From the IMG/VR virus record IMGVR_UViG_3300011827_000030, positions 1-39,646 of that record: a stretch of DNA of 39,646 nucleotides; one strand, 5' to 3'. Positions 1,137 to 37,040 of the stretch are shown in pieces (positions within the stretch are counted from its first letter, which is position 1; each line of letters begins with the position of its first letter). The DNA is from a virus. Its lineage: Duplodnaviria; Heunggongvirae; Uroviricota; Caudoviricetes. The translations under genes were made by a program, and so were the position numbers. The notes beneath the pieces were generated by a model. It saw only the letters and a list, made by a program, of their open reading frames with translations. It was not told where the DNA came from and ran no database searches.

Positions 1137-2813
1137 CTAAGCAACATGCAGTTCATCGTTGGCGGAAGTTGCTGCTTTGCGCTCTTGCTCAATCGCCAGT
1201 GACTCTCTATATTCTTTCGCTTCCGCAAACATTGTCCATTGTGCGTTGATGTTCATATCTTCAATAACAGACTTAATTTCTTTAATATTTACGTTGAAAA
1301 ACTCTTTTCGTGAGTTAATTTTATTGACCTGTTTTTCGTTGAAGACTTTATGCAGATGATTTTCTAATGATGGTGCATCATCACTATAAATCATCGCATG
1401 AACATCGAACGAAAAAGGAACACTAGCATCACCGAGTTCACGAACACGATCAAGTGGTTCAAGGCGGCGTGTCATTCCAATTTTATATACATCTTCGCCA
1501 AATGAGCCAATATTACTAATTATATAAACGTGGCCTGATCTAGTTTGTTGAGCCATAGAAATAGCTCGTTGGTTTTTAGCTTCAGCTTCTTCATATTTTA
1601 ACTGTAGTTCAGCTATTTTTTGCTCTAAAGCTAAGCGTTGTTCTTCATTTGCAAGCATAAGCTCTTTTGTTGCTTTATTTATAGCTTGCTGAATAGCTTT
1701 CTCTTCTTTTTCAGCTTCTTTTATCGCTTTTTCATACTCCCTACGAGCTCTTTCCTCTTCACGAAGTTGTTCTTTAATCCTTCTTTGCTCTTCTTTTTCT
1801 TCGAGCATAATTTCATTAACTGCAACTCCCCATTTTAGCTCGTTGAGTCGAGCTTGAAGATAGATGTCACTTATTTTTGCGGACCTAAAGGCAGAACCAT
1901 TGTAATTTACAAGTTGAAACGCATCTTTTATCTCTTGGGAAAGTTTTCCAAAATTGTTGTGTTTGACTTTTGATAAAATACTGTCAACTCTTCCATTGAA
2001 GGCATCTAAAACAAAGTTGATAGCAGTATTACGCCTGTTTTGTTCAACATAATCACACGAAGCAGCTTTATTAGTTTTTATTAATAATTTTGTTAACTCC
2101 CTGGCTTTTTGTAATTCCTTACCTGCATCTGTAAACTCATAATTTTCTGCCAATTCATCGAGAACGCTACGGTTAGGGATGATCCATTCATCACCATAAC
2201 CTTCAATTTTATTTTTCATTGATTTGGCAACTGCTTCATATTTTTCTGCAAACTCTTTAGCTTCATATGCTGAACCAGCAATCTCTTTTGCTCTTTCTTC
2301 TGCATCGGAAATAATTTTCACTGCATTGTCATTAGCATTTGAGATCAGCTCATTTGCTTTACTATTGGCATTATCAAGACGTTCTTTAGCTTTCAGGCGT
2401 GCATCGCGAGCGTCTTTAGTAATTGCTATAGCTTCGCTATTAGCGTTGCTTATTTTTATCTGAGCTTGATAATTTGCTTCGTTTACTGTCTTAGCAGCCT
2501 TTATTTGGGCTTCTTCTATTTTTTGCCTGGCTATTGAGTCTGCATTTTTTATCTTATTCTCTGCTTCCATCACTGCGCTGTGCAATTCTACGTATTGCCA
2601 TAATGGCGCAGCTCGTCCTTCAAGCTCTGATAGATCTCGTACAGTCTGTGCTAATTCTTCTTGATTTTCTTTCAGTTGGTTGGAAAGGGCTATGTTGTTA
2701 GCTGTCAAGGTATTTATAGCCGCTTTATGTTTTTTGCTTTGCTTAAATAATATTACAGCTAGAATGGGGGCGAGAAATGCTAATAAGAATATAACGATGG
2801 AAAATGAATTCAT
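1137..2813 (-). CDS. Cargo protein: N-terminal transmembrane helix, long coiled coil, C-terminal T5orf172 (GIY-YIG-like) domain; candidate defence or lysogenic-conversion gene
   Basis: 558 aa; hydrophobic N-terminus SFSIVIFLLAFLAPILAVILF; K/E/A/Q-rich heptad-like stretches; C-terminal GHVYIISNIGSFGEDVYKIGMTRRLEPLDRVRELGDASVPFSFDVHAMIYSDDAPSLENHLHKVF...EFFNV matches the recalled T5orf172/DUF4041 pattern; gene is AT-rich relative to the phage backbone; RBS AAGGA precedes the ATG. Confidence 0.75.
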   Translation of the reverse strand: MNSFSIVIFLLAFLAPILAVILFKQSKKHKAAINTLTANNIALSNQLKENQEELAQTVRDLSELEGRAAPLWQYVELHSAVMEAENKIKNADSIARQKIEEAQIKAAKTVNEANYQAQIKISNANSEAIAITKDARDARLKAKERLDNANSKANELISNANDNAVKIISDAEERAKEIAGSAYEAKEFAEKYEAVAKSMKNKIEGYGDEWIIPNRSVLDELAENYEFTDAGKELQKARELTKLLIKTNKAASCDYVEQNRRNTAINFVLDAFNGRVDSILSKVKHNNFGKLSQEIKDAFQLVNYNGSAFRSAKISDIYLQARLNELKWGVAVNEIMLEEKEEQRRIKEQLREEERARREYEKAIKEAEKEEKAIQQAINKATKELMLANEEQRLALEQKIAELQLKYEEAEAKNQRAISMAQQTRSGHVYIISNIGSFGEDVYKIGMTRRLEPLDRVRELGDASVPFSFDVHAMIYSDDAPSLENHLHKVFNEKQVNKINSRKEFFNVNIKEIKSVIEDMNINAQWTMFAEAKEYRESLAIEQERKAATSANDELHVA

Positions 2814-2833: not shown

Positions 2834-3430
2834 TTAATTTGAAACTATTGTACTTCTTATACAAGCAACTACTTCAATATCAGAAAATGCACATTCAAAG
2901 CTATTCTCTGTACTTGTAATTTTAATCATACCTTTTGGAAGCTTTGTGATTTTTCGAATGGAATAGGTTCCGTCGATGTTGATTAACCAGTGCCCATCAA
3001 GTACTTCAGAAAATTTTTGATCACAAATGTATGTGACGAGCCCATCCTGAATAACAATTGGTGATGAAAGATTTGCAGGAAGAAATGATGAATCGAAGAC
3101 ATATGAACCATCTTCAATCATTTTGCCTGCGGTAAGGCGAAACTTGGCAAGCTCTTCTGTAGCTGCTGTCAGCGAGCTTTGCTTAAGGCCTTGCCCGGTG
3201 GTTAACCATTTCAGTGAGGTTCCTGTTTCAAGAGCACATTGGATTATCCAGTCTGCAGGAAACGTATCCCGCAAATACCTGTTCGCCAGAGTGCTTTTTG
3301 ATACTTCCAAGTGATCAGCTAAAGCCTGTCGTGTCGTAAAGCCATAAGCTTCGACTAATCGCTCAATCGCAGCCTTACCACCTTTATTGGGATTTATTTT
3401 GATCTCATTTGGGTACTTTGATGTTGACAT
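2834..3430 (-). CDS. cI: 186-type CI immunity repressor (CI-like HTH N-terminal domain)
   Basis: 198 aa; N-terminal ...STLANRYLRDTFPADWIIQCALETGTSLKWLTTGQG resembles the phage CI repressor HTH family; divergent from apl/cII across a promoter region. Confidence 0.8.
   Translation of the reverse strand: MSTSKYPNEIKINPNKGGKAAIERLVEAYGFTTRQALADHLEVSKSTLANRYLRDTFPADWIIQCALETGTSLKWLTTGQGLKQSSLTAATEELAKFRLTAGKMIEDGSYVFDSSFLPANLSSPIVIQDGLVTYICDQKFSEVLDGHWLINIDGTYSIRKITKLPKGMIKITSTENSFECAFSDIEVVACIRSTIVSN
3406..3418. repeat. Direct repeat CATTTGGGTACTT, copy 1 (candidate operator / Apl or CI binding site)
   Basis: Exact 13-mer repeated at 3465-3477 in the cI/apl switch region. Confidence 0.5.
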
Positions 3431-3452
3431 ATCTCTTTTGCGATCCTAGTAT
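3424..3452 (+). promoter_or_regulatory. Candidate early rightward promoter (pR-like): -35 TTGACA, 17-nt spacer, -10 TAGTAT
   Basis: TTGACA at 3424-3429 and TAGTAT at 3447-3452 with a 17-nt spacer, about 75 nt upstream of apl; overlaps the cI start codon. Confidence 0.55.
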
Positions 3453-3464
3453 CAATTTTGTCCC

Positions 3465-3477
3465 CATTTGGGTACTT
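3465..3477. repeat. Direct repeat CATTTGGGTACTT, copy 2
   Basis: Identical to 3406-3418. Confidence 0.5.
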
Positions 3478-3525
3478 GTCACGATTACTACAGGCTCACC
3501 ACAAGCCAATAGGAGATGTTGCATC

Positions 3526-3747
3526 ATGACCCCTAACATTTCAATAACTCTGAATACGCCACATGTCACAATTGAGCGTTATAGCGAACTTACTGGTCTT
3601 TCTATCGACACCATCAACGATATGCTGGCTGATGGTCGCATCCCTCGCCATCGCCTTCGGAAAGACAAGAAAAGAGAAAAGGTAATGATCAACCTTGCTG
3701 CTCTTACCGTTGATGCACTTACTGATTGCAATGTTGTATTCAACTAG
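3526..3747 (+). CDS. apl: Apl/Cox-type excisionase and transcriptional regulator
   Basis: 73-aa product [10 protein letters not shown]...; RBS AGGAGA at 3511-3516; first gene of the rightward early operon, divergent from cI as in phage 186. Confidence 0.7.
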
Positions 3748-3779
3748 TTCCATTTTGGGATACATCAGGGGTGTCGACT

Positions 3780-4289
3780 ATGTTTGATTACCAAGTTTCC
3801 AAACATCCACATTTTGACGAAGCCTGTCGTGCATTCGCACTGCGCCACAACCTGGTGCAACTGGCAGAACGTGCAGGCATGAATGTACAGATTCTGCGGA
3901 ACAAGCTGAACCCAGCTCAACCTCATTTATTAACCGCACCAGAAATCTGGTTGCTTACCGATCTGACTGAAGATTCAACGCTGGTAGATGGCTTTCTGGC
4001 ACAGATTCACTGCCTGCCATGTGTACCGATTAATGAGGTGGCAAAAGAGAAACTGCCGCATTATGTCATGAGTGCAACCGCAGAGATCGGGCGTGTTGCT
4101 GCAGGTGCGGTATCCGGCGATGTAAAAACCAGTGCAGGTCGTCGTGATGCTATCAGCAGCATTAACTCTGTAACACGGCTGATGGCGCTGGCCGCTGTTT
4201 CATTGCAGGCCCGTTTACAGGCTAATCCTGCGATGGCGAGTGCAGTTGATACCGTTACTGGCCTCGGTGCTTCATTCGGTTTGCTGTGA
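3780..4289 (+). CDS. cII: CII-like lysogeny establishment regulator (186 CII-like)
   Basis: 169-aa product starting [24 protein letters not shown]..., close to my recollection of 186 CII (same length, similar N-terminus). Confidence 0.8.
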
Positions 4290-9180: not shown

Positions 9181-9624
9181 GAAATGTTGCCCCCAGGAGG
9201 ATTCATTCTAATGGGGGCTAGTTTGGGCAACGAGTGAAACGAGGCGTAAGGTGGGTAATCATTTTGATAAGTGATCGCCCACTTTGTGCCAAAAGCGGAC
9301 ATCGCAGATATGACAATATGTTAGTCAACCGCGATTAGATCAGTCAGTTGGAGATGGGGGGAAGTTACAAAAACTTGTCGTCCGCCATCTCCGACTACGG
9401 GTATTCTTAACTGTACATGCTCTTTCAATCGATGATTTTTGAGTAAGTGACTAACCTATTGTTTTGATAGTAATTAAACGTATAAACGTGCGGAGTTAAT
9501 TTGAAAGTTATGTGTCTATGTTTGACAAGCAAAATTTTAAAGATTGGTTTTATCCACAGGTAATTTATGCTATTAATAGCCTCAAGCCCTGTAATTATTT
9601 TTATTTAAATGGATAAATTTGAAA

Positions 9625-11745
9625 ATGAGTACATATCATAATGATCAGCCAATACTAGGTGGTCAAAATGACCCCGATTTATTAAACAGGCTCGATTTTG
9701 CAAATCACTTGGCAAATATTCTACTATTAAATCACAATGATGATTGCCTTACTGTATCTATAGAGGCAGAGTGGGGATATGGTAAAACGTCAGTGATAAA
9801 TCTTATAAAAGGTGCTTTGAATGAAAAGGAGTTCTTACCAATAATAATAGAATATAATCCATGGCTGGCCGGTCAACCTGAATCCTTGATTCAGGATTTT
9901 TTATTACAGTTCTCTTCACAACTAAATATTAAAGACAATTCAAAAGCTGCTTTGGAAGCTTCAAAAGAATTAATTGCATACTCCAATCTCTTCAGTGTAG
10001 CAAAACTTATTCCAGGGACAGAACCTTGGGCATCTATCATAGAAAAAGTCCTCTCTAATTTTGGGAGTGCTACTAAAAAGATTGCTGAATTAAAAAAACT
10101 GGATCTTTTAGGTAGAAAAAAACAAGTAGAGAAGGCAATAAAAAAAATAAAAAATCCTATTGTGGTAATAATTGATGATTTTGATCGATTGACTCCTACA
10201 GAAACTTTTCAAGTTTTACGATTGGTTAAAGCAGTTGCAGATTTCTCAGGAACTTCTTTTTTACTTGCATTTGATCCTAATTATTTGATTTCTGTGCTTG
10301 ATAAAAATAATATCGTCAATTCTTCGGAGTATCTTAATAAAATTGTTCAACTTCGAGTCCCACTTCCTGTAATCTCAGAAAGGGGTATGAATGAACTTGC
10401 AAATGCAGAACTGGAAAAGATAGCTAATAAATCTTTAACTGACAGATTCGAAAGTGATCAAGAAAGACTAAGCTGGATTTATCATAATTATTTTAAAAAA
10501 CTAATTAAGAATCCGAGAGAGTTAAAAAGATTTTTTAACCATTTGAGATTCGTTTTAGAGCAAATTGAAGGGCAGGTATGTTTTTCTGATCTCTTTGCTT
10601 TATCTCTGGTTGCCACTAAATCGAGTTTGGTATACGAGCATATTAAAAGCACACCAGAGGCATATATAGGGAAGAGATTCACTAATGATGGCCTTTTGAT
10701 GGATAAACCTCAAGATATTGTGGATAGATTTAGTGATGAGCGAAATAAGAAACTGAGTAATTTTTCTGATCAAGAGCGTTCAGTGATGCAGGAACTCTTA
10801 GGAGATATTTTCCCACTTCTACAGTCAAGCGGGTATTCTCATTATGGGGTTTCTGATCCCGATACAGCAGGAAGGGTTTCTGCACCACAAAGGCTTCATA
10901 TTGCGTTTCATTATAAAACTCCAGCAGGGTATATTTCTGATCATGATATTATCAGTTTCATTAATGGAGATGTTAAAAGAAACGAATTTCTAAGAGATGT
11001 GCTCTCGCAAAATGCAGAAGAAAGATTTTTTGAAATGATGAATAATTATTCGAGTTATTGTAAGGATAATAGTTTTGAAATATTAACGTGTATTTATGAT
11101 ACTTTTCTGTTTTCTCAAGAATTGAAATCCTCATTGGAAAGAAACTATGGTTTTTTGACAAAAGATCTTTATAGAAGGATGAATTGGCTCACTAATAAGG
11201 TAATATCTGAAAGTGATGATAAATATGGGTTAATAAAGGGGGTTGTAGGTAGGCATGAGAATGCGCCACTTGGTGCAGACGTATTATGCCAAGCTCGTAA
11301 ACAGATTCAAAATGGATGGAATGACAAAATATGGGTTAGTATTGAAGAATTGGCTGAACTTGAAGGTATCTTTCAACAGGTGGCTATTAAAGTTTTAAGT
11401 GATAAAATATATTTTGATTATCATCTTGAATCTCATATATTTTTCGAATTAAAGAGAGTTTCATCTCAATTTACATCAGAGTTTATTGCTTCTGTATTAT
11501 CAAGTGATGGCCTGATTAGGATGTGTGAGATTATTGGTGAAACAGGTAGTGATTCAACAAATGGCCCTTTTTTTAAGTTTGATGAAATTTACTTCGGGGA
11601 AATACTTGATGTGAATGAACTTCGAAATAAAGCGAAAAATTTAGATTTTTCAATTTATCCCACACGCATTCAAGCTGTACTTAAGAGTATTCTGGATGGA
11701 CAAAAATATTATTTGAGAGATGCAACTGTTGGTGAAGATTGGTAA
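9625..11745 (+). CDS. KAP-family P-loop NTPase (cargo, candidate defence gene)
   Basis: 706 aa from ATG 9625; Walker A EAEWGYGKTS (9766-9792) and Walker B hhhhDDFDR (IVVIIDDFDRLTPTE) with a long helical C-terminal region, the KAP NTPase signature; gene is AT-rich; no obvious TM helices. Confidence 0.8.
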   Translation: MSTYHNDQPILGGQNDPDLLNRLDFANHLANILLLNHNDDCLTVSIEAEWGYGKTSVINLIKGALNEKEFLPIIIEYNPWLAGQPESLIQDFLLQFSSQLNIKDNSKAALEASKELIAYSNLFSVAKLIPGTEPWASIIEKVLSNFGSATKKIAELKKLDLLGRKKQVEKAIKKIKNPIVVIIDDFDRLTPTETFQVLRLVKAVADFSGTSFLLAFDPNYLISVLDKNNIVNSSEYLNKIVQLRVPLPVISERGMNELANAELEKIANKSLTDRFESDQERLSWIYHNYFKKLIKNPRELKRFFNHLRFVLEQIEGQVCFSDLFALSLVATKSSLVYEHIKSTPEAYIGKRFTNDGLLMDKPQDIVDRFSDERNKKLSNFSDQERSVMQELLGDIFPLLQSSGYSHYGVSDPDTAGRVSAPQRLHIAFHYKTPAGYISDHDIISFINGDVKRNEFLRDVLSQNAEERFFEMMNNYSSYCKDNSFEILTCIYDTFLFSQELKSSLERNYGFLTKDLYRRMNWLTNKVISESDDKYGLIKGVVGRHENAPLGADVLCQARKQIQNGWNDKIWVSIEELAELEGIFQQVAIKVLSDKIYFDYHLESHIFFELKRVSSQFTSEFIASVLSSDGLIRMCEIIGETGSDSTNGPFFKFDEIYFGEILDVNELRNKAKNLDFSIYPTRIQAVLKSILDGQKYYLRDATVGEDW

Positions 11746-12341: not shown

Positions 12342-14678
12342 ATGATTGAAGAGGTAGTTATTGACAAGGTAGGCTCATATAATGGCCCTACGCAGCTTTT
12401 ACATGGACTTTCTAAATTTAACTATTTATATGGAGCTAATGGTGCAGGTAAAACAACTATAAGTAAAATTATTAATGACCCTGAACAATATCCAACATGT
12501 CCGATTAAATGGAAAAATAATATATCTTTAATAAGCTACGTATATAATAAAGATTTTGTTGAAAGAAATTTTAGTCAAGATAAAATTAAAGGTGTATTTA
12601 CCCTTGGTAGCGATCTTAAGGAGGATGAAGAGAAACTAATATCTCTTAAAGAAGAAAAAAATAAGCTAATGGAATCTATTATAGCAAAGGAAAAGTTAAT
12701 AGATGGTGGTGATAATGAATTAGGCGTTATTAAAAAAATCGAAGACCATGAAAAATCTTTTAAAGATTCATGTTGGAAGCAAAAAGTAAAACATGACAAT
12801 GTGTTCTCAAAGGCTTTTGAGGGATTAAGGAATAGTAGTGAAAAATTTAAAGCCAGAGTGTTGGCTGAGTATGAAAATAATACATCAGAAGTTTGCTCAA
12901 TAGCAGAGTTAATTGAGAAAGCAAAAATTGTTTTTTCTACTGAATTGACATCACATGTATCAATTACAATTCCATCCTTCAATGGGATAGATGATATTTT
13001 GAGTAGGGAAGTTTGGAGTGAGCGCATCCTAGGGAAAAAAGACGTTAGTGTTTCAGACTTAATTACAATGCTCAATAACAGTGATTGGGTTAAGGAGGGT
13101 TTAACATATTTCAGTAAATCTAATCCCAAGTGCCCATTCTGCCAGCAGGATGTAAATGATAATATATTTGATAATCTTTCATCATATTTTGATAAAACAT
13201 ATGAGTTAAAAAAAAGAGAAATCGATGCATTGGTTTTACAATATGAATATCAACTTAATAATATCTTGAAGGCGATAGATGATATAAGGGCGATTAAATC
13301 TCCATTCATAAATTATGAAGTGTTTGAGGATAAGGCTAAGATAGTATTATCTGAATTAAACAAGAATTTTGAATTGGCAAAAAATAAACGCAATTTTTTA
13401 AGTGAATCAGTTCATTTTAGTGACTTAAGTGAAGTTGTTGATGATTTTATTTCTTTTTTGAATGATTCAAATCTATTGATAGATAATAATAACAAAATAC
13501 ATAGTAATAGAAAGGTAGAGGCTAGTAATCTTTCTAAGCAGATATGGGCATATATCGTAAAGGTGGAGTTAAAGTCTGAAATAACTTCTTACCGTAGCAA
13601 ATCTGATAAATTTAATAGGACGTTACAAGGACTTAAATCTGGGATAGAAGAAGACAAAAAGAAGTTAATGTTAAATACTTCGGCTATTGAGGCAATTGAG
13701 TCTAATAAAACCAGTACTCTTCCAACTATTACAAAAATTAACAAGATTCTGGACTCTTATGGCTTCAAAAATTTTTACTTAAAACCCTCCGAAGATAAAA
13801 AGCATTATATGATAGTGAGAGATAGTGGAGATAATGCTCGTACAACCCTTAGTGAGGGAGAAAAGACATTTATCACTTTTTTGTACTTTTATAGCCTTGT
13901 TAGAGGGAGTGATAATGCATCAGGTGTTTTAGATGATCGTGTTGTAGTATTTGATGATCCAATTTCAAGTTTAGATAGTGATATTCTGTTTATTGTAAGT
14001 TCGTTGATTAAAGATTTAATGGAGGATGTTCGTAAGGATGAAGGAAATATTAAGCAAATTATATTCCTTACTCATAATATTTATTTTCATAAAGAGTTGA
14101 CTTTTAATACCAAAAGATCCGGTAATCAAGCAATGAAAGAGGAGACTTTTTGGATTGTAAGGAAAAAAGGGAAGGTTTCATATCTTGAAAAGTGCGAATC
14201 AAACCCAATAAAAACGTCTTATGATTTGCTCTGGTGCGAATTGAGAAGAACAGACATTAATAATAATACTATACAAAATACAATGCGAAGGATTTTGGAG
14301 AATTACTTTAAGATATTAGGTGGGATGGATATTAGGAAGCTTGAGTGTCATTTTTATGGTGATGAAAAAATCATATTTAAATCTTTAGTGTCATGGATTA
14401 ATGATGGTTCCCATTTTGCAGGTGATGATCTTTATATGAATTTAGATACGGAGTCTGTGCAAAAATATTTAATTGTTTTTCAGAAGATATTTGAATGTAG
14501 TGAGCATACTGCCCATTACAAAATGATGATGGGTGAGTTTTATAAACCGTTAAATGAGTCACTTCATCTACAAGATGAGTTTGATATAGATGATAGTGCG
14601 AATGATGAGTATGCTTCGTCAAAAATTGAGATAAAAGATGGAATAAACACATCTCTACATAGCAACACATATTTGTAA
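12342..14678 (+). CDS. RloC-like ABC/SMC-type ATPase with coiled-coil insert, CxxC zinc hook and PrrC-like C-terminal putative nuclease (cargo, candidate defence gene)
   Basis: 778 aa; Walker A GANGAGKTT (12432-12458); CPFC at 13131-13142 near the middle of the predicted coiled coil; signature-like LSEGEKT, Walker B VVVFDDP, H-loop FLTHN; C-terminal region contains RRILE and IRKLECH (14334-14351); RBS AGAGG; AT-rich. Confidence 0.75.
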   Translation: MIEEVVIDKVGSYNGPTQLLHGLSKFNYLYGANGAGKTTISKIINDPEQYPTCPIKWKNNISLISYVYNKDFVERNFSQDKIKGVFTLGSDLKEDEEKLISLKEEKNKLMESIIAKEKLIDGGDNELGVIKKIEDHEKSFKDSCWKQKVKHDNVFSKAFEGLRNSSEKFKARVLAEYENNTSEVCSIAELIEKAKIVFSTELTSHVSITIPSFNGIDDILSREVWSERILGKKDVSVSDLITMLNNSDWVKEGLTYFSKSNPKCPFCQQDVNDNIFDNLSSYFDKTYELKKREIDALVLQYEYQLNNILKAIDDIRAIKSPFINYEVFEDKAKIVLSELNKNFELAKNKRNFLSESVHFSDLSEVVDDFISFLNDSNLLIDNNNKIHSNRKVEASNLSKQIWAYIVKVELKSEITSYRSKSDKFNRTLQGLKSGIEEDKKKLMLNTSAIEAIESNKTSTLPTITKINKILDSYGFKNFYLKPSEDKKHYMIVRDSGDNARTTLSEGEKTFITFLYFYSLVRGSDNASGVLDDRVVVFDDPISSLDSDILFIVSSLIKDLMEDVRKDEGNIKQIIFLTHNIYFHKELTFNTKRSGNQAMKEETFWIVRKKGKVSYLEKCESNPIKTSYDLLWCELRRTDINNNTIQNTMRRILENYFKILGGMDIRKLECHFYGDEKIIFKSLVSWINDGSHFAGDDLYMNLDTESVQKYLIVFQKIFECSEHTAHYKMMMGEFYKPLNESLHLQDEFDIDDSANDEYASSKIEIKDGINTSLHSNTYL

Positions 14679-17568: not shown

Positions 17569-17586
17569 TGTGTGGTTGTCGGTACA
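17569..17586. promoter_or_regulatory. Late-activator (Ogr) site TGT-N12-ACA upstream of O
   Basis: TGTgtggttgtcggtACA centred about 88 nt upstream of the O start, in the P/O divergent region. Confidence 0.5.
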
Positions 17587-22263: not shown

Positions 22264-22657
22264 AGCGGTGCCTTATGTCCGCAATAACCCGGACAAACTG
22301 CATCTGTTTGTGGATAACGGTTCGCTGGTTGCCACGGGGGCCAGCTCCATGTCATGGGAGTACCGCTACACCCTGAACGTGGTGATTGAGGATTTCAGCG
22401 GCGACCAGAATCTGCTGATGGCCCCGGTTTTGCTGTGGTTGCGGGATAACCAGCCCGATGCCATCAATAACCCGGCGTTACGGGAAAAGCTATTCACCTT
22501 TGAGGTGGATATTCTGCGCAACGATGTCTGTGATATCAGCCTTAACCTGCAACTGACGGAGCGTGTGCTGGTCAGCACTGACGGCAGTGTGTCGAACGTT
22601 GAAGCGGTAGCGGAACCTGATGAACCTGAAGAAATGTGGACGGTGAAACGTGGCTGA
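22226..22657 (+). CDS. R: Tail completion protein (P2 gpR-like)
   Basis: GTG start with AGGAG RBS 7 nt upstream; about 143 aa; position before S. Confidence 0.75.
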   Translation: MNKPQSLRHALNKAVPYVRNNPDKLHLFVDNGSLVATGASSMSWEYRYTLNVVIEDFSGDQNLLMAPVLLWLRDNQPDAINNPALREKLFTFEVDILRNDVCDISLNLQLTERVLVSTDGSVSNVEAVAEPDEPEEMWTVKRG

Positions 22658-23093
22658 ACTGCAGAAGGTGGACGACTGGCTGAGTGCATTATTGGCGAAT
22701 CTGGAGCCAGCCGCAAGAAGCCGCATGATGCGCCAGCTGGCGCAGGAACTGCGCCGGACACAGCAGCAGAACATCAGGATGCAGCGCAATCCAGATGGCA
22801 GCAGTTATGAGCCGCGCAGGGCAACAGCACGCAGCAAAAAGGGGCGCATCAAACGTCAGATGTTTACAAAGCTGCGCACCTCTAAATACCTTCAAACTAC
22901 CGCCAGCGCCGATTCTGCCAGCGTGCAGTTTGAAGGTAAGGTGCAGCGCATTGCACGCGTTCACCATTACGGCCTGCGTGATCGCGTCAGTCGTCATAGT
23001 TTTAAAGTGAAATATGCGCAACGGCGTCTTCTAGGCGTTAATAAAGACATAGAAATTTGGGTTCGAAACACACTGATGCACTGGCTTGTTTAG
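22650..23093 (+). CDS. S: Tail completion / virion morphogenesis protein (P2 gpS-like)
   Basis: 147 aa from a GTG overlapping the R stop; position as in P2. Confidence 0.75.
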   Translation: MAELQKVDDWLSALLANLEPAARSRMMRQLAQELRRTQQQNIRMQRNPDGSSYEPRRATARSKKGRIKRQMFTKLRTSKYLQTTASADSASVQFEGKVQRIARVHHYGLRDRVSRHSFKVKYAQRRLLGVNKDIEIWVRNTLMHWLV

Positions 23094-23118
23094 TGCTTCA
23101 GTGTGTTAAAACAGAAGA

Positions 23119-24870
23119 CTATTGGTTGAATATAAAGCTGATAATATTTTCAGGAGTGAGCTCTATGTTTTTTTTATTAAGTTTTTGAATGTACATTTTA
23201 TATTTCATTTCAACGTTTCGGAAGCCTTGCGCAACAGAAAGTATTTCTACAGGATGAGATGAAAGCTTTATTAAGGAGTTAATGACTGCATCTAGGTAGA
23301 TGTGAGCATGTTCAACTAAAACATTTGTTTTTGATGGGGTTTTTCCAGTGTGAACTATCAAGTTTCTAGTTCTATATATTCTCCTAATTTGCCAGTTGAT
23401 TCTTTCTGCATGATTTTTAAGTGCCTGATACATAGTATCAGTTGAGGAAATTAAATTGCTAATATATTCAAATCTCTCTTTCAATAACGGAAATTGTGAG
23501 AGTTCTATCTTAAACTGATTGATGCTAGGGGCATGTTCTTGCGAAGCAACAAGAATTACAAATGATTTGGCTGCATCGCTATCTCCAATTAGTCTTAGAA
23601 GTGACATGGTTCGAGGATGATTCCATCGTTGTAAGTCTTTTATAAGATTCCTTACTAGGTCTTCAATATAATTCAGGTTTAAAAATGGTGTTAATGAATT
23701 AACGATATGTTCTATCGTGGATTGTTCTTCTTTTTTTGATTCGTCGGGGATGAGTGATTCAATAGCAATCCATAAATTTAAAAGCTGATTTTCTACAGCA
23801 TTTGTCTGTAGTGCCATTGAATGTAATTGTACACTTCTTATGAATTTATTGAAAGAATCCTTGCGCATTCTGAAATTATTCATGAATTGTTCGAGTCTTC
23901 TGCTTGCGTGTTCCTGAACCAGATCCTTGCAGCGGTGCATTGGGTTTATGCTGCTTCTTATATTGATTTTTTCACCATTTTCACTAACTACAATGTTCTC
24001 TGCAGACCATGATGCTTCTTGCTTATGATGATAGAGAGAAAGCAAAGTTGATGCGAGCTTTAAGTTTCTTTCAGCTACCCTTCTAGCCGTGAATGGATCA
24101 AGTGCTTTAACATGCTTAACTAAAATAGTTCGTTGTTCATGATTATCGAAGAAATCTGTTTCATTAATATTTTCGGGGGTTTCAAGAACAACCTCAATTT
24201 CTAATTGTGATAAGCATGGAGTAATATAACTAAAAGATTTGTCAGCATTGAAATAAACTGAATATTCTTGTGTCTCTGAGGGGATGTTCTCTAGGAATGT
24301 AATAATCTCTTCATTTGAACTGATCTCTCGTTCTCTTTGGAAGAAATGTTTTTTTAGACTTTCCATCAAATATTCTTGACTTAATCCTTTTGATATTAGG
24401 TGGGTAATCAACAGTCTTGTAAACTTTCGAATTTTATTTGGGTTGTATTCTGAAGTTATTGTAGAGCAAAGTTCACTGATGAGTTTGCTTTCATAATTAT
24501 CAACATTAAGTTGAACTCTCAGTAATTCAAGAGTTATTTTTAGATTTTTATTTCCTAACTGATTGTTTTGGAGTTGATCTAAAAATGAACCTAAAGGGTT
24601 TTTTAGAAGACTGATTGCGATGTCATCATTCTTAATATTTTTAGTTAATTCGTCAATGACGTGGGATATATGTGCGGGGCTTATGTTGCCTTTTTCTATA
24701 TCATCGATTGTTGATATTGCTTCTATACATAAACTTGGAGTGTTCATTATAGAAGGTTTATATGTACTATGGGTGTAATCAAAGAGAAGTTCCTCCATTA
24801 ACTCGGTGAAATAAATAAGCGCAGTGCATTGTTCAATATGATTCCAGTTGTGTAGTCTTCTAAATTTCAT
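23119..24870 (-). CDS. Cargo protein with C-terminal HEPN-like RNxxxH motif (candidate abortive-infection RNase), inserted between S and V
   Basis: 583 aa from ATG 24870 (RBS AAGG upstream; the listed ORF extends to a TTG at 24990); motif IRRIYRTRNLIVHTG encoded at 23350-23373; opposite strand to flanking tail genes; AT-rich. Confidence 0.7.
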   Translation of the reverse strand: MKFRRLHNWNHIEQCTALIYFTELMEELLFDYTHSTYKPSIMNTPSLCIEAISTIDDIEKGNISPAHISHVIDELTKNIKNDDIAISLLKNPLGSFLDQLQNNQLGNKNLKITLELLRVQLNVDNYESKLISELCSTITSEYNPNKIRKFTRLLITHLISKGLSQEYLMESLKKHFFQREREISSNEEIITFLENIPSETQEYSVYFNADKSFSYITPCLSQLEIEVVLETPENINETDFFDNHEQRTILVKHVKALDPFTARRVAERNLKLASTLLSLYHHKQEASWSAENIVVSENGEKINIRSSINPMHRCKDLVQEHASRRLEQFMNNFRMRKDSFNKFIRSVQLHSMALQTNAVENQLLNLWIAIESLIPDESKKEEQSTIEHIVNSLTPFLNLNYIEDLVRNLIKDLQRWNHPRTMSLLRLIGDSDAAKSFVILVASQEHAPSINQFKIELSQFPLLKERFEYISNLISSTDTMYQALKNHAERINWQIRRIYRTRNLIVHTGKTPSKTNVLVEHAHIYLDAVINSLIKLSSHPVEILSVAQGFRNVEMKYKMYIQKLNKKNIELTPENIISFIFNQ

Positions 24871-24914
24871 ATTAATACCTTGTTTTGTGAAGCTTGAATT
24901 TACCTTTAGCGCAT

Positions 24915-24932
24915 TGTTTGTTGCTTCATACA
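24915..24932. promoter_or_regulatory. Late-activator (Ogr) site TGT-N12-ACA upstream of V
   Basis: TGTttgttgcttcatACA, part of the longer palindrome tgtttgttgcttcatacaaaca, in the 108-bp gap between the cargo gene start and V. Confidence 0.5.
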
Positions 24933-24978
24933 AACATGGTTTGTTTGTGATCTCAAGTGTTTGATTAAGAATTTGAGA

Positions 24979-25557
24979 ATGAACGTACAACTCACGGAAA
25001 TCATGCGCCTTATCACCAATCTGATCCGCACAGGGGTAGTCACCGAAGTGGACCGGGAAAACTGGCTTTGCAGGGTGAAAACGGGCGAGCTTGAAACCAA
25101 CTGGATCAGCTGGCTGACGCTACGTGCCGGAAATGCCCGGACATGGTGGCGACCATCGGAAGGTGAGCAGGTGGTGCTGCTGAGTCTGGGCGGCAATCTG
25201 GAAACAGCCTTTGCGCTGCCCGCCATCTATTCGAATCAGTTTGCACCGCCGTCGACGTCGGCGGACGCCTGCGTGACAGAACATCCTGACGGTGGCTGGT
25301 TTGAATATGAACCCGCCACCGGGCGCTGGTATGTCAGGGGCATCAAATCAATGGTCATTGAGGCCGCTGATAACATCACCATGAAAACCAGTGAGTTTGT
25401 ACTGGAGGCTGACCGCACGCGCATTAACAGCGAAGTGGTGATCAATGGTGGCGTTACCCAGGGCGGCGGAGCGATGAGTTCTAACGGGATTGTGGTTGAT
25501 GCACATCAGCATACTGGCGTCCTGAAAGGCGGCGACACAACCGGAGGCCCGGTATGA
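24979..25557 (+). CDS. V: Baseplate spike / assembly protein (P2 gpV-like)
   Basis: Contains IRTGVVTEVD...WWRPSEGEQVVLLSLGGNLETAFALPAIYS, resembling P2 V as recalled; start ambiguous between ATG 24979 and ATG 25003. Confidence 0.8.
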   Translation: MNVQLTEIMRLITNLIRTGVVTEVDRENWLCRVKTGELETNWISWLTLRAGNARTWWRPSEGEQVVLLSLGGNLETAFALPAIYSNQFAPPSTSADACVTEHPDGGWFEYEPATGRWYVRGIKSMVIEAADNITMKTSEFVLEADRTRINSEVVINGGVTQGGGAMSSNGIVVDAHQHTGVLKGGDTTGGPV

Positions 25558-25913
25558 CGCTTTATAGCGGGATGAACAATACCAGCGGTAAAGCCATTAC
25601 TGATATTGACCATCTGCGCCAGTCGGTGCGGGACATTTTGCTGACGCCGCAGGGTAGCCGCATTGCCCGTCGGGAATATGGTTCCCTGCTGTCGGCACTG
25701 ATAGACCAGCCACAAAATCCGGCATTACGCCTGCAGGTCATGTCGGCAGTGTATGTGGCGCTGAGTCGCTGGGAGCCACGGCTGACGCTGGATTCCATCA
25801 CCATTAACAGCAATTTTGACGGTTCAATGGTGGTGGAGCTGACCGGGCGGCGTAATAACGGTGTGCCTGTTTCCCTTTCCGTATCAACAGGAGCAGAGAA
25901 TGGCAGTGATTGA
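25554..25913 (+). CDS. W: Baseplate wedge protein (P2 gpW-like, GPW/gp25 family)
   Basis: 119 aa; start overlaps the V stop; position and size as P2 W. Confidence 0.8.
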   Translation: MTLYSGMNNTSGKAITDIDHLRQSVRDILLTPQGSRIARREYGSLLSALIDQPQNPALRLQVMSAVYVALSRWEPRLTLDSITINSNFDGSMVVELTGRRNNGVPVSLSVSTGAENGSD

Positions 25914-26808
25914 CCTTTCGCAGTTGCCTGCGCCGCAGATTGTCGATGTGCCGGACTTTGAGACGCTGCTTGCCGAACGCAAGGCCGAATTTGTTGCGCT
26001 TCATCCGAAAGATGAGCAGGAAGCAGTGATCCGCACGCTGGAACTGGAATCTGAACCCGTCACCAAATTGCTTCAGGAGAACGCTTACCGTGAGTTGCTT
26101 CTGCGCCAGCGCATTAACGAAGCCGCGCATGCTGTGATGGTGGCTTACGCGATGGGCGGCGATCTTGACCAGCTCGCTGCCAACTACAACGTGAAACGCC
26201 TGACTGTGACGCCTGCTGATAATGACGCTGTGCCACCCGTTGCGGCTATGATGGAAAGCGATGAAGCGTTACGCCTGCGTGTGCCTGCAGCCTTTGAGGG
26301 GCTTTCAGTTGCGGGGCCAACTGCAGCTTATGAATTTCATGCCCGAAGCGCCGACGGTCGGGTGGCGGATGCCAGTGCAACCAGTCCGGCGCCTGCAGAG
26401 GTAGTGCTGACGGTCCTGAGTCGTGAAGGCGACGGAACAGCAGAAAAAGACTTGCTGGATGTGGTGGAGAAAGCCCTGAACAGTGAGAACGTCCGCCCGG
26501 TGGCTGACCGTCTGACGGTTCGCAGCGCAGAAATCATTCCGTATCGCGTGGAAGCCACCATTTTTCTCTATCCGGGACCGGAAGCAGAGCCGGTAATGGC
26601 AGCGGCAAAAGCCAGTCTGCAGAAGTACATTGCCAGCCAGACGAGGCTTGGTCGGGATATTCGCCGTAGCGCCATCTTTGCTGCTCTGCATGTTGAGGGT
26701 GTTCAACGTGTGGAACTGGCTTCTCCGCTGGCGGATGTGGTCCTGAACAAAACACAGGCGGCATCATGTACGCAGTGGAGCGTAACCAACGGAGGAACGG
26801 ATGAATAG
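25900..26808 (+). CDS. J: Baseplate protein (P2 gpJ-like)
   Basis: 302 aa from ATG 25900 (RBS GGAGCAGAG); position after W. Confidence 0.85.
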   Translation: MAVIDLSQLPAPQIVDVPDFETLLAERKAEFVALHPKDEQEAVIRTLELESEPVTKLLQENAYRELLLRQRINEAAHAVMVAYAMGGDLDQLAANYNVKRLTVTPADNDAVPPVAAMMESDEALRLRVPAAFEGLSVAGPTAAYEFHARSADGRVADASATSPAPAEVVLTVLSREGDGTAEKDLLDVVEKALNSENVRPVADRLTVRSAEIIPYRVEATIFLYPGPEAEPVMAAAKASLQKYIASQTRLGRDIRRSAIFAALHVEGVQRVELASPLADVVLNKTQAASCTQWSVTNGGTDE

Positions 26809-27406
26809 TCTGCTGCCACCGGGTTCAACTTCACTGGAGCGCCGACTGGCGCAAACCTGTAGCGGGATTTCTGATTTGCAGGTGCCGCTGCGTGACTTGT
26901 GGAATCCGGCTACCTGTCCGGTCAGTTTCCTGCCTTATCTCGCCTGGGCGTTCTCTGTGGATCGCTGGGACGAGGGCTGGACAGAAAGCGTCAAGCGCCA
27001 GGTGGTGAAGGATGCTTTTTATATTCATCAGCATAAAGGGACCACCAGTGCCGTGCGGCGGGTGGTGGAGCCGTTCGGCTTTCTGATCCGCATTATTGAG
27101 TGGTGGCAGACCGGAGAAACACCCGGCACGTTTCGCCTGGATATCGGCGTGCAGGACCAGGGCATCACTGAAGATACCTATCAGGAACTTGAGAGGCTGA
27201 TAAGCGATGCCAAACCATGTAGCCGTCACATGATCGGCATGTCCATCAATCTACAGACCAGCGGCCCGTATTGGTTGGGGGCAGCCAGCTATCTTGGTGA
27301 AGAAATCACGATCTTTCCGTATATCAACGAAACAATTATTTCCGGCGGCACCGCGCATGAAGGCGGGGCGGTCCATGTTATTGACACAATGAGAGTGAAT
27401 CCATGA
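26801..27406 (+). CDS. I: Baseplate/tail protein (P2 gpI-like)
   Basis: 201 aa; RBS GGAGGAACGG; start overlaps the J stop. Confidence 0.8.
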   Translation: MNSLLPPGSTSLERRLAQTCSGISDLQVPLRDLWNPATCPVSFLPYLAWAFSVDRWDEGWTESVKRQVVKDAFYIHQHKGTTSAVRRVVEPFGFLIRIIEWWQTGETPGTFRLDIGVQDQGITEDTYQELERLISDAKPCSRHMIGMSINLQTSGPYWLGAASYLGEEITIFPYINETIISGGTAHEGGAVHVIDTMRVNP

Positions 27407-29154
27407 GCACAAAATTTTATACCCTGCTGACGGATATTGGCGCGGCGAAACTTGCCAGCGCCGCCGCGCTCGGTGTGCCTTTAAAAATTACCCATATGGC
27501 GGTCGGCGATGGCGGCGGAACATTACCAACGCCGGACGCAAAGCAGACAGCACTGGTAAATGAGAAACGCCGGGCTGCGCTGAATATGCTCTATATCGAC
27601 CCGCAGAACAGCAGCCAGATTATTGCTGAACAGGTGATCCCTGAAAACGAGGGCGGTTGGTGGATACGTGAAGTGGGCCTGTTTGATGAGTCCGGAGCAT
27701 TGATTGCCGTGGGCAACTGCCCGGAAAGCTATAAGCCGCAACTGGCTGAAGGCAGCGGGCGTACCCAGACCGTGCGTATGGTGTTGATTACCAGCAGCAC
27801 GGACAATATCACCCTGAAAATCGACCCTGCCGTAGTGCTGGCAACCCGCAAGTATGTGGATGACAAAATATCAGAGCACGAACAGTCACGACGTCACCCG
27901 GACGCCTCGCTGACCGCAAAAGGTTTTACTCAGTTAAGCAGTGCGACCAACAGTGAATCCGAAATACTGGCCGCAACACCGAAGGCTGTGAAGGCTGCAT
28001 ATGATCTTGCAGCAGGTAAAGCATCCGCCAGTCACACACACCCGTGGAATCAGATAACGGATGTGCCTGCAGCTTCACTGACGGTAAAAGGCACCGTGCA
28101 ACTCAGCAGCGCCACTAACAGCACGTCAGAAACGCAGGCTGCCACACCAAAGGCAGTGAAGGCGGCATATGACCTTGCAGCAGGTAAGGCACCTGTCAGT
28201 CACACGCACCCGTGGAGCCAGATAACGGATGTGCCTGCAGCTTCACTGACGGTAAAAGGTACCGTGCAACTCAGCAGCGCCACTAACAGCACGTCAGAAA
28301 CGCAGGCTGCCACACCAAAAGCCGTGAAGGCTGTATATGACCTTGCCAATGGAAAACAACCTGCCGACGCCACACTGACCGCACTGGCAGGCCTTGCCAC
28401 TGCGGCAGACAAACTACCGTATTTTACGGGGAATGATACAGCCAGCCTGACAACCCTGACTAATGTTGGACGGGATATTCTGGCTAAAACAAGCAAACAG
28501 GAGGTTATTCATTATCTTGGTTTGGGAGCTACAAACGGATACGTGGGACGCTTGGTGAATACCCGGGTTTTCACGTCATCAGGTACGTACACCCCGACGC
28601 CAGGAACAAAACGGATCAGGGTCACAATAACGGGCGGCGGTGGCGGAGGGGGCGGCTGCAAGGCTATATCCAATAATGAAACGTTTTTCGGTGCTGGCGG
28701 TGGGGCCGGTGGAACAATAATTTCAATAATGACCCCGACACAGAATAGTTATCCAGTCACTATCGGCGCAGGTGGGGCCGGTGGTGTTAGTGCAACGTAC
28801 GGCATCAATGGCGGTAATAGCTTATTCGCATCGTTAATTGCTCCTGGTGGCGCAGGCGGCGGAAAGTCAGGAGTCACAAACACAAACGGTGGTAACGGAG
28901 GTGTGCCGAGTACTGGCGATATAAACATCATTGGTGGATGTGGAGGCGACGGTCAGTCCGGAAATATCGGCGTCAGCGGTGAAGGCGGAACATCGTACTG
29001 GGGTGGCGGTGGACGCGCAGGCGCTGGCGGTGGTGTTAGCGGCAAGGCATATGGTTCAGGTGGCGGTGGTGCATACGATGCCGGTTATAGCGGAACCAGT
29101 ATGACGGGCGGGAAAGGCGCTGCAGGGATTTGTATTATCGAGGAGTTTGCATAA
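27403..29154 (+). CDS. H: Tail fibre protein (P2 gpH-like) with tandem fibre repeats and a glycine-rich C-terminal domain
   Basis: 583 aa; N-terminus MSTKFYTLLTDIGAAKLASAAALGVPLKITHMAVGDGGG typical of P2-type fibre attachment domains; internal 56-aa tandem repeats; C-terminal about 180 aa dominated by GGxGG runs. Confidence 0.9.
   Translation: MSTKFYTLLTDIGAAKLASAAALGVPLKITHMAVGDGGGTLPTPDAKQTALVNEKRRAALNMLYIDPQNSSQIIAEQVIPENEGGWWIREVGLFDESGALIAVGNCPESYKPQLAEGSGRTQTVRMVLITSSTDNITLKIDPAVVLATRKYVDDKISEHEQSRRHPDASLTAKGFTQLSSATNSESEILAATPKAVKAAYDLAAGKASASHTHPWNQITDVPAASLTVKGTVQLSSATNSTSETQAATPKAVKAAYDLAAGKAPVSHTHPWSQITDVPAASLTVKGTVQLSSATNSTSETQAATPKAVKAVYDLANGKQPADATLTALAGLATAADKLPYFTGNDTASLTTLTNVGRDILAKTSKQEVIHYLGLGATNGYVGRLVNTRVFTSSGTYTPTPGTKRIRVTITGGGGGGGGCKAISNNETFFGAGGGAGGTIISIMTPTQNSYPVTIGAGGAGGVSATYGINGGNSLFASLIAPGGAGGGKSGVTNTNGGNGGVPSTGDINIIGGCGGDGQSGNIGVSGEGGTSYWGGGGRAGAGGGVSGKAYGSGGGGAYDAGYSGTSMTGGKGAAGICIIEEFA
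27898..28368 (+). repeat. Tandem in-frame repeat of 168 bp, about 2.7 copies, inside tail fibre gene H
   Basis: Units starting at 28033 and 28201 are nearly identical at the DNA level (HTHPW[NS]QITDVPAASLTVKGTVQLSSATNSTSETQAATPKAVKA[AV]YDLA...); a diverged partial copy precedes them. Confidence 0.75.
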
Positions 29155-29567: not shown

Positions 29568-29580
29568 ATACCGTCATTTT

Positions 29581-29598
29581 GTGTGAATAACGGTACAA
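29581..29598. promoter_or_regulatory. Late-activator (Ogr) site TGT-N12-ACA upstream of FI
   Basis: TGTgtgaataacggtACA inside the palindrome accgtcattttgtgtgaataacggt, centred about 85 nt upstream of the FI ATG. Confidence 0.5.
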
Positions 29599-36843: not shown

Positions 36844-37040
36844 CGTTAAAAAACAGTGCTTCTAACATCATGATTTTAAACAGCTTAAATTTCAGGCAAC
36901 AAAAAACCCATCAACCTTGAACCGAAGTGGCGGGGGTGGTGGGCTCCCCAAAAAGGGGACATCAAAGAAAAGCAGTGGCATTACTTATGACTGATGCCCT
37001 GAGAAAAAGTTCTGCCTGTGACGGCTTTTTTCTCAAAAAA

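Follow-up and report, generated by a model that had tools for sequence, protein, structure and literature searches.

An Ec2ApeA allele at the junction of tail genes S and V in a P2-like prophage

Identity of the antisense gene

Why should a large gene of foreign base composition lie between two tail genes of a P2-like prophage, on the strand opposite to the late genes, and what does it encode? The question is raised by a virus of the Caudoviricetes (IMG/VR record IMGVR_UViG_3300011827_000030), whose 39,646 nucleotides make up the window that was analyzed. An earlier note, made from the letters of the DNA, had described an AT-rich ORF of 583 aa placed antisense and exactly between S and V, and had taken it for a HEPN RNase moron with an abortive-infection or toxin role that it could not assign to a named system. 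The coordinates of the ORF, its strand and its 108-bp gap to V were all confirmed (Table 1). The gene S, named "phage virion morphogenesis protein" in the identical RefSeq locus, closes the O late operon and converges with the antisense gene across a spacer of 25 bp. On the other side, 108 bp (24871-24978) separate the start of the antisense gene from the ATG of V, which opens the V late operon. The AT-rich character of the ORF was equally borne out: the GC content of the island (23094-24978) is 33%, compared with 53% in S, 57% in V and ~55% in the flanks. At this composition, the chance of an open frame of 583 codons is ~4e-20. A longer mechanical ORF reaches a TTG at 24990, within V; the 583-aa form has the start used by both RefSeq and the PDB construct.

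When the protein was compared with the PDB using phmmer, it matched Ec2ApeA of E. coli 2-156-04_S4_C1 (PDB 9HXB, 9HXD-9HXI), with 581 of 583 residues identical to chain 9hxi_A and a score of 1271 bits over residues 1-583. The two proteins have the same length and the same start. The two substitutions, D124 here (G in Ec2ApeA) and D210 here (E in Ec2ApeA), fall outside the functional residues named in the Ec2ApeA preprint (Juozapaitis et al., bioRxiv 2026, 10.64898/2026.01.26.701840), and the window allele keeps all of these residues (31/31), be they catalytic or part of the pocket, the oligomer interface or the regulatory loop. The ApeA profile of PADLOC, PDLC02157, also gave a full-length match (E=1.3e-12): its positions 21-553, out of 601, pair with residues 20-534. 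Further phmmer matches were Ec3ApeA (E=1.9e-133), Ec1ApeA (E=1.6e-12, over residues 20-534) and Ec4ApeA (E=7.5e-11). Among the databases searched, PADLOC and the PDB sequence search were the only ones to name ApeA. Searches of Pfam, NCBIfam and PHROGs with the protein gave no significant match, and the identical RefSeq entry, WP_072664300.1, is labeled "hypothetical protein". DUF7625 and MauJ scored below threshold and were set aside. The near-identity to Ec2ApeA upholds the nuclease role proposed in the earlier note, and supplies the system name that the note could not give.

Table 1. Features of the S–V region, in window coordinates. Domain coordinates are the published Ec2ApeA residue limits converted to window positions.
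Feature	Position	Strand	Basis
Gene S, P2-type (tail completion / virion morphogenesis)	22650..23093	+	Pfam Phage_tail_S in identical loci, RefSeq
Diverged 3' end of S, ~110 nt, within the exchanged variable segment	22980..23093	+	identity drop
apeA (Ec2ApeA allele), single-gene anti-phage defence; 583 aa and stop	23119..24870	-	first ATG
Split HEPN_ApeA domain, residues 335-583	23122..23868	-	limits from Ec2ApeA structure paper
RTRNLIVH, residues 500-507, catalytic HEPN motif R502-N503-x3-H507	23350..23373	-	read directly
Regulatory loop, residues 331-341, relays ligand binding	23848..23880	-	loop described in Ec2ApeA preprint
Mid domain, residues 199-309	23944..24276	-	limits from Ec2ApeA structure paper
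N-terminal domain, residues 1-198, part of ligand pocket	24277..24870	-	limits from Ec2ApeA structure paper
Ogr-type activator site of P_V (late promoter), a TGT-N12-ACA dyad	24915..24932	+	conserved position, P2 annotation
Gene V, P2-type (baseplate spike)	24979..25557	+	RefSeq "baseplate assembly protein V", Pfam Phage_base_V

The octapeptide RTRNLIVH had been read as a HEPN signature. Taken alone, such a motif is weak evidence, because R[NHQ]xxxH arises in 16% of shuffles of the ApeA protein. The protein has no significant HEPN match in Pfam, and a HEPN domain is therefore not shown by sequence profiles alone. R502, N503 and H507 are, however, invariant across 38 homologues (35-90% identity). 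In Ec2ApeA, R502 is catalytic and the R502A mutation abolishes defence; the HEPN core of the cryo-EM structures consists of four helices (H1-H4), of which H3 bears the motif (10.64898/2026.01.26.701840). With the Rx4-6H motif present here and the four-helix core taken from the solved structure of a 99.7% identical protein, the protein belongs to the HEPN superfamily, as had been claimed from the motif.

The remaining functional parts of the protein were examined in the same way. All 15 named pocket residues (15/15) and all nine inter-dimer interface residues (9/9) are kept in the window allele, including T36, Y37, S40, I41, M42, E74, R148 and R152 of the N-terminal part of the pocket, and the regulatory-loop residues R334, M335, R336 and K337 are intact. 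Ten pocket residues (T36, Y37, S40, E74, R148, R152, Y401, H487, R490, Q494) are invariant among the 38 homologues, and an eleventh, Y525, is nearly so. Against the 76%-identical Enterobacter allele, pN was 0.142 and pS was 0.723, which indicates purifying selection; the comparison is given for this allele only, dS being saturated against the 55% and 41% alleles. We conclude that the gene is very probably the Ec2ApeA allele, residing as accessory cargo in the S–V slot of an apparently complete P2-like prophage and acting by the mechanism reported for Ec2ApeA. The antisense gene between S and V is a real observation of a system that is already known. It is not new, because Ec2ApeA has already been characterized as a single-protein anti-phage defence.

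Control region and expression of apeA

The 108-bp gap between apeA and V had been proposed to hold a late-activator site and to serve as a compact control region, shared by divergent late and cargo transcription. The late-activator site stood up, while a promoter for the cargo was not found in the gap. Across the window, the bare pattern TGT-N12-ACA occurs 11 times against 10.3 expected and is not enriched. Since this count is within chance, the significance of the dyad rests on its kept position. In four junction types whose surroundings are otherwise unrelated, the dyad ends 46 nt before the ATG of V (its center lies 55.5 bp before it), and this geometry is nearly that of the P2 feature annotated as "activator binding site; activation of pV promoter" and of the P2 transcription start. 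The dyad is an element of the phage backbone and does not serve the cargo.

For apeA itself, no sigma-70-like promoter was found in the 108-bp gap. The four promoter-like sites detected in 22900-25100 all fall outside it, inspection of the gap by eye yielded only poor -35/-10 pairs, and an alignment of the gaps from four ApeA-bearing junctions revealed conservation of only the late-promoter dyad and the start of V. Expression of apeA from the repressed prophage is therefore assumed. At the other end of the gene, a scan of the spacer between the convergent S and apeA found no terminator, and this spacer folds no better than its shuffles (z=0.34). Two plus-strand terminator-like matches lie inside apeA where 1.1 are expected, a number within chance. 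An Rfam search found no RNA in the island.

These results raise the alternative that apeA is not transcribed in the lysogen, perhaps because H-NS silences it as an AT-rich passenger, and that it belongs to a recently spread cassette that provides no native defence. Such silence would agree with the lack of a promoter-like site upstream of apeA on the minus strand, with a gap that has no conserved cargo-strand element besides the late-promoter dyad, and with the 33% GC of the island. A recent spread would also fit the identity of 99.7% or more among the Ec2-type copies in E. coli. On the other hand, the low pN relative to pS reveals strong purifying selection between alleles, and the catalytic and pocket residues have remained invariant. 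Full-length, intact apeA ORFs are found in five divergent alleles of the S–V slot, where S and V are the only neighbors, and a defective prophage that has lost V to H still retains an intact apeA. Moreover, the consensus promoter scan is crude and many real promoters are missed by it. Taking both sides into account, we consider silence in the lysogen unlikely.

Mechanism and comparison with related HEPN proteins

The mechanistic evidence on Ec2ApeA comes from a single preprint (10.64898/2026.01.26.701840), in which a synthetic gene was expressed from a plasmid under a T7 promoter and not in its native prophage context, whereas the window copy is seen in the natural S–V slot of a P2-like prophage. 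[quoted passage not shown] The phages sensitive to Ec2ApeA include Vequintavirus, Justusliebigvirus, RB69 and Bas27. Cryo-EM revealed a decamer ring with density for dpCG within the pocket. The activators are 5'-phosphorylated deoxydinucleotides (pdNG): dpCG activates tRNA cleavage by Ec2ApeA in vitro, and in the pocket mutants Q494Y and R490A both binding and defence are lost. Overexpressed Ec2ApeA is toxic, and co-expression of a diDNase relieves this toxicity (10.64898/2026.01.26.701840).

Judging from its sequence, the window allele, with D124 and D210, would act like Ec2ApeA. HEPN dimers would build a decameric ring, the active sites of which would face a channel of the size of a tRNA. 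The activator pdNG is thought to build up when a superinfecting lytic phage breaks down host DNA. Ligand binding would then rearrange loop 331-341, and the HEPN site (R502/N503/H507) would be turned on. Active ApeA would cleave tRNA anticodon loops, whereupon translation would stop and the infection would be aborted. The lysogen, and hence the prophage, would in this manner be shielded from competing phages. The P2-type lytic cycle is not known to degrade host DNA, and ApeA is probably not triggered by it.

A different mode of action, in which ApeA is mainly a direct, non-abortive nuclease on the RNA of the invading phage, and not an agent of tRNA cleavage and abortive infection, is suggested by Ec1ApeA of E. 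coli NCTC8008, the original, founding ApeA. Like the window ApeA, Ec1ApeA is a single protein (~600 aa) whose HEPN domain lies at the C-terminus. Its subunits assemble into a decameric ring, and it is associated with cleavage of tRNA anticodon loops in T2 infection (10.64898/2026.01.26.701840). The preprint of Drobysheva et al. reports that Ec1ApeA acts against ssRNA phages, cutting their genomic RNA without cell killing, and that the same conserved pocket does the sensing. Since Ec1ApeA is non-abortive on RNA-phage genomes, targets and outcome can differ by allele and phage. Ec1ApeA is, however, only remotely similar to the window ApeA: it has other residues at several pocket positions, deoxydinucleotides do not activate it, and the phages against which it protects are others (10.64898/2026.01.26.701840). 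Ec2ApeA itself has dinucleotide-activated tRNA cleavage and protects at low MOI only, and direct cutting of phage RNA and tRNA cleavage are not mutually exclusive. That the window allele acts mainly on phage RNA is thus quite improbable.

We also give very little weight to ApeA being the toxin of a toxin-antitoxin (TA) or addiction module that stabilizes the prophage, with an unrecognized antitoxin nearby. HEPN domains are common among TA toxins, the HEPN domain of ApeA resembles HepT most closely in structure (10.64898/2026.01.26.701840), and the toxicity of overexpressed Ec2ApeA might be read in the same sense; this background toxicity is, however, explained by endogenous dinucleotides, and diDNase relieves it. 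No credible antitoxin-like ORF was found in the island: the other ORFs encode only 43-61 aa and are overlapping or antisense to apeA, and the Rfam search offers no RNA in place of a protein partner. As apeA is alone in the island and no nucleotidyltransferase gene lies in its neighborhood, the locus is not a type II TA system of the HEPN/MNT (HepT-MntA) kind. The lack of an antitoxin-like partner is in line with ApeA being described as a single-gene family.

The minimal HEPN toxins of the HepT type and the HEPN RNases Csm6 and Csx1 share with ApeA the Rx4-6H motif on a dimeric HEPN core, and the two RNases, too, are activated by nucleotide ligands. ApeA differs from them in having no antitoxin or CRISPR partner, and in its additional N-terminal and Mid domains and HEPN insertions. 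Its rings are 10- or 12-mers, and its ligand is a breakdown product of DNA, not a synthesized second messenger.

The S–V junction as an accessory slot

The gene apeA is present in 11 of 5,426 complete E. coli genomes (11 of the ~1,050 that have matching S/V genes), and every copy lies between S and V. The lysogens JNQH497, W21 and NCTC9008, for example, have a locus identical to that of the window. Most of the sampled S–V junctions (32/51) are empty, while the other 19 contain at least eight kinds of cargo. The same slot, again antisense to the late genes, holds Ec3ApeA (PDB 9HXJ) and alleles from Enterobacter, Pantoea and Klebsiella. These proteins are 583-584 aa long, are 41-76% identical to the window ApeA and conserve its catalytic and pocket residues; their genes lie 79-114 bp from V and 8-66 bp from S. 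Ec3ApeA differs from Ec2ApeA in forming a dodecamer instead of a decamer, and its protection is only moderate (10.64898/2026.01.26.701840). Distant ApeA homologues reside in chromosomal defence islands with unrelated neighbors. A tblastn search of 50,697 phage records with ApeA found no match, and a search of plasmids gave only remote matches, of at most 28% identity.

At the equivalent place in P2 (GenBank AF063097), flanked by S on one side and by the activator site of pV on the other and near the late promoter, the complement strand carries orf30, as the earlier note had pointed out. The P2 gene is annotated as nonessential, and its cargo is of another kind: Orf30 has 261 aa, its function is unknown and its partial sequence has no Pfam match, whereas the cargo in the window is a 583-aa defence nuclease. 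Apart from the position between S and V, nothing favors ApeA as a structural or morphogenetic part of the virion tail, a role to which we attach almost no credence given the opposite strand, the foreign composition, the gene's absence from ~99% of E. coli genomes with matching S/V and from most sampled junctions, the lack of a homologue in the deposited phage genomes, the distant homologues in chromosomal defence islands and the nonessential orf30 at the same site.

The borders of the exchanged segment can be seen in comparison with other E. coli P2-like prophages. Identity in S, at least 0.9 over most of the gene, falls to ~0.5-0.7 from about nt 330, and the C-terminus of S varies with the type of cargo. 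Similarity restarts exactly at the ATG of V. The S–V junction is an accessory slot, with variable, dispensable cargo of foreign base composition. Other hotspots of the same prophage hold PD-Lambda-1, a PifA-like KAP NTPase and a PDC-S06 ATPase.

Read jointly, these observations would make S–V a site dedicated to cassette exchange, in which an enterobacterial clade of ApeA has resided for a long time, with a functional antisense placement, a reading that we put forward tentatively and regard as possible but rather doubtful. According to it, cassettes may move together with their own S C-terminus and their own P_V control region, and the antisense orientation of the gene where two late operons meet, with a spacer of only 25 bp and no terminator behind S, could be functional. 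On induction, read-through from the O operon together with Ogr-dependent firing of P_V might silence apeA by transcriptional interference. If true, this interference would spare the phage's own lytic cycle an abortive-infection nuclease.

For the gene itself, the structure, the activating ligand and the RNA target have already been reported; the value of the present analysis lies in annotation and context. Prophages are not mentioned in either ApeA preprint. A modest addition is that Ec2 and Ec3, both experimentally studied, are natural prophage cargo at one P2-like junction, which they share with the relatives from Enterobacter, Pantoea and Klebsiella. This context suggests that ApeA is worth studying as a tool of phage-phage competition deployed from the lysogen, and not only as a chromosomal defence gene.

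Identity of the antisense gene

The 583-aa protein encoded between the P2-type tail genes S and V gave nothing significant in Pfam, NCBIfam and PHROGs profile searches; the PADLOC ApeA profile matched it over its full length (E=1.3e-12). Its identity was settled by a PDB sequence search, in which 581 of 583 residues were identical to Ec2ApeA (PDB 9hxi and related entries). The two substitutions are D124 (G in Ec2ApeA) and D210 (E in Ec2ApeA). Other characterised E. coli ApeA proteins matched more weakly (Ec3ApeA, E=1.9e-133; Ec1ApeA, E=1.6e-12; Ec4ApeA, E=7.5e-11). Judged by its sequence, the gene is therefore apeA, in the Ec2ApeA allele, and belongs to an already known system whose structure and mechanism have been reported. 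All 31 residues named in that report are kept here: 3 catalytic, 15 pocket, 9 interface and 4 loop residues, with R336 counted in both the interface and the loop lists. The identification is of value for annotation, as RefSeq still calls the protein "hypothetical protein".

The 583-aa form is that used by RefSeq and by the PDB construct; mechanically, the ORF extends to a TTG at 24990, within gene V. The island carrying it (23094-24978) has a GC content of 33%, a sharp drop from 53% in S and 57% in V, and the chance of a 583-codon open frame at this composition is about 4e-20. The gap between the apeA and V ATG codons is 108 bp, as the earlier note stated. Neither a partner ORF nor an Rfam element was found in the island, and no terminator-like structure was found in the 25-bp spacer of the convergent genes S and apeA.

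Features of the prophage and of compared loci (window positions unless a locus is named)
Feature	Location	Strand	Basis or remark
PD-Lambda-1-type gene	1137-2813	-	558 aa, AT-rich; PADLOC PD-Lambda-1 E=1e-119; Pfam DUF4041 + T5orf172/MUG113
KAP-family NTPase	9619-11745	+	708 aa; PADLOC PifA E=6e-64, N-terminal 449 aa only
AAA_13 ATPase	12342-14678	+	778 aa; PADLOC PDC-S06 E=1.6e-266; weaker PrrC, LmuB matches
Dyad, P/O intergenic region	17569-17586	+	
Gene S, P2-type	22650-23093		RefSeq annotation of identical locus; Pfam families in identical contigs
apeA	23119-24870	-	583 aa from first ATG
TGT-N12-ACA dyad before V	24915-24932	+	Centre 55.5 bp before V ATG
Gene V, P2-type	24979-25557		RefSeq annotation of identical locus; Pfam families in identical contigs
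Tail-fibre gene H	27403-29154	+	583 aa, glycine-rich C-terminal part
Dyad just upstream of sheath gene FI (29674)	29580-29597	+	
RybB sRNA gene, full-length	36898-36976	-	Rfam RF00110, 91 bits
TIR-domain protein, S-V slot	L002 2063-2863	+ (sense)	266 aa; weak PADLOC PDC-S66, SpbK, ThsB matches
288-aa protein, S-V slot	L003 1974-2840	-	No Pfam or PADLOC match
Ec3ApeA, E. coli, S-V slot	L015 3253-5004	antisense	
ApeA of Enterobacter, Pantoea, Klebsiella, S-V slot	L011, L014, L016 4001-5752/5755	antisense	

Conservation and reported mechanism

The earlier note had read the gene as a HEPN RNase with an abortive-infection or toxin function and had named no system. This reading is supported, the system being ApeA. 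The string RTRNLIVH on which it drew corresponds to residues 500-507 (R502-N503-x3-H507). Because R[NHQ]xxxH turns up in 16% of shuffles of the ApeA protein, the motif by itself is weak evidence. The HEPN fold has been seen experimentally in the near-identical protein, and aligning 38 homologues (35-90% identity) showed no variation at R502, N503 and H507, nor at the pocket residues T36, Y37, S40, E74, R148, R152, Y401, H487, R490 and Q494. Comparison of the window allele with a 76%-identical Enterobacter allele (pN 0.142 vs pS 0.723) indicates that apeA is under purifying selection. A role as a virion component was rejected: among 5,426 complete E. coli genomes, of which about 1,050 have matching S/V genes, 11 carry the Ec2-type gene, and the lack of any ApeA homologue among 50,697 deposited phage genomes also counts against it.

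The ApeA system consists of one gene (Juozapaitis et al., bioRxiv 2026, doi 10.64898/2026.01.26.701840). According to this preprint, Ec2ApeA protects at low but not at high MOI, which indicates abortive infection, and protection is abolished by R502A. Each monomer has three domains: residues 1-198 make up the N-terminal domain, 199-309 the Mid domain and 335-583 a split HEPN domain, which structurally is closest to the HepT toxin. Paired as HEPN dimers, the subunits build a decameric ring whose active sites point into a channel of tRNA size. Ligand binding rearranges loop 331-341, and defence is lost in pocket mutants (Q494Y, R490A and others) and in the interface mutant R551E. Background toxicity is relieved by a co-expressed dinucleotide-degrading diDNase, and the authors propose that the activating 5'-phosphorylated deoxydinucleotides (pdNG) arise when the infecting phage degrades host DNA. 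This mechanism was shown for a plasmid-expressed protein 99.7% identical to ours; the window allele would act in the same way and would be expressed from the prophage.

The S-V slot and the late promoter

In the P2 GenBank record, orf30 (annotated "nonessential") likewise lies between S and V and is encoded on the complement strand, which bears out the earlier note's comparison of the antisense gene with orf30. We surveyed the slot in an even sample drawn from the 1,056 matching records, which gave 51 rows with both S and V matched. The junction was empty in 32 of these and held cargo in 19. By size or annotation the cargo sorts into at least eight classes, among them DUF6216, TIR and FRG proteins, ApeA and several proteins labelled "hypothetical". 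Several of these cargoes are uncharacterised candidates for defence functions. Homology to other E. coli P2-like prophages is lost ~110 nt short of the end of S and picks up again precisely at the V ATG, so the exchanged module spans approximately 22980-24978 and, on this alignment evidence, takes in the S C-terminus and the control region of the V promoter (P_V) besides the ORF. Both the last ~110 nt of S (~22980-23093) and the whole P_V control region (24871-24978) vary with cargo type; since the 3' end of S differs by cargo, the C-terminus of the S protein co-varies with it.

The P2 record also annotates an "activator binding site; activation of pV promoter" 14 bp after orf30, and V transcription as starting at the V start codon. 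The P2 site is centred at the same distance from the V ATG as the window dyad, and the TGT/ACA dyad readable inside it has an 11-nt spacer and lies ~1 bp further from the ATG. The dyad position is kept in four junctions otherwise sharing little sequence: empty (68 bp from S to V), an antisense 288-aa hypothetical protein, a sense TIR-domain protein, and ApeA. Across the window, the bare TGT-N12-ACA pattern is about as frequent as chance predicts (11 copies vs 10.3 expected); three of the non-overlapping dyads fall in short regions upstream of late operons, and those in the P/O region and before FI are at positions expected for other P2-type late promoters. From the kept position and the dyads at other late operons, we conclude that the activator site claimed in the earlier note is real, though it belongs to the phage backbone. 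When the gap was compared across four junctions that carry ApeA, nothing but the dyad and the V start proved conserved, and a scan of the gap found no promoter for apeA.

Prophage context of ApeA

Public assemblies contain the exact window protein in 303 blocks. In the contigs read, apeA adjoins S in all cases (25/25), and the full S-apeA-V arrangement is present in all but one. The exception (L007, CP055964.1, at about 3077-4001 of the locus) is a copy of this prophage from which 3.35 kb has been deleted, corresponding to 25457-28808 in the window. W, J and I are lost entirely, together with the 3' end of V and most of H, and the neighbouring apeA is intact; it looks like a defective prophage still keeping its defence gene. 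In strain JNQH497, H encodes ~695 aa, though the S-apeA-V region is 100% identical to the window; tail-fibre modules have been swapped separately from the other parts of the prophage.

ApeA relatives are also found antisense in the S-V slot of P2-like prophages from Enterobacter roggenkampii (76% identity), Pantoea agglomerans (55%) and Klebsiella (41%), as is E. coli Ec3ApeA itself (PDB 9hxj, 41%). The more remote relatives, in Burkholderia and Vibrio, are found in chromosomal islands, with an Eco57I-like methyltransferase as neighbour in the former and SIR2 and HerA genes in the latter. Complete E. coli genomes contain a single Ec3-type apeA (NZ_AP027404.1, 3812032-3813785), which spans 1,754 bp against a query of 1,752 bp and for which the annotation shows two hypothetical proteins; this copy may carry a frameshift.

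The window prophage carries three defence-type genes besides apeA. The PD-Lambda-1 gene, a second defence cargo, lies in a different hotspot from apeA, flanked by the integrase gene (1-1053) and the CI repressor gene (2834-3430). The PifA-like KAP NTPase and the PDC-S06 AAA_13 ATPase share an island of ~30% GC at the classic old/tin hotspot, which separates replication gene A from portal gene Q. The rybB gene lies just past the right end of the prophage, between the ogr region and host ybjL, a position that suggests phage integration at or next to this gene.

The word "prophage" is absent from both ApeA preprints, and neither ApeA nor orf30 is mentioned in the P2 hotspot papers covered. The S-V slot is known in general terms, and its occupation by ApeA appears to be unstated in those texts, making it a modest addition to the literature. 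The natural prophage context invites study of apeA expression in the lysogen, and of its silencing or tolerance on induction.
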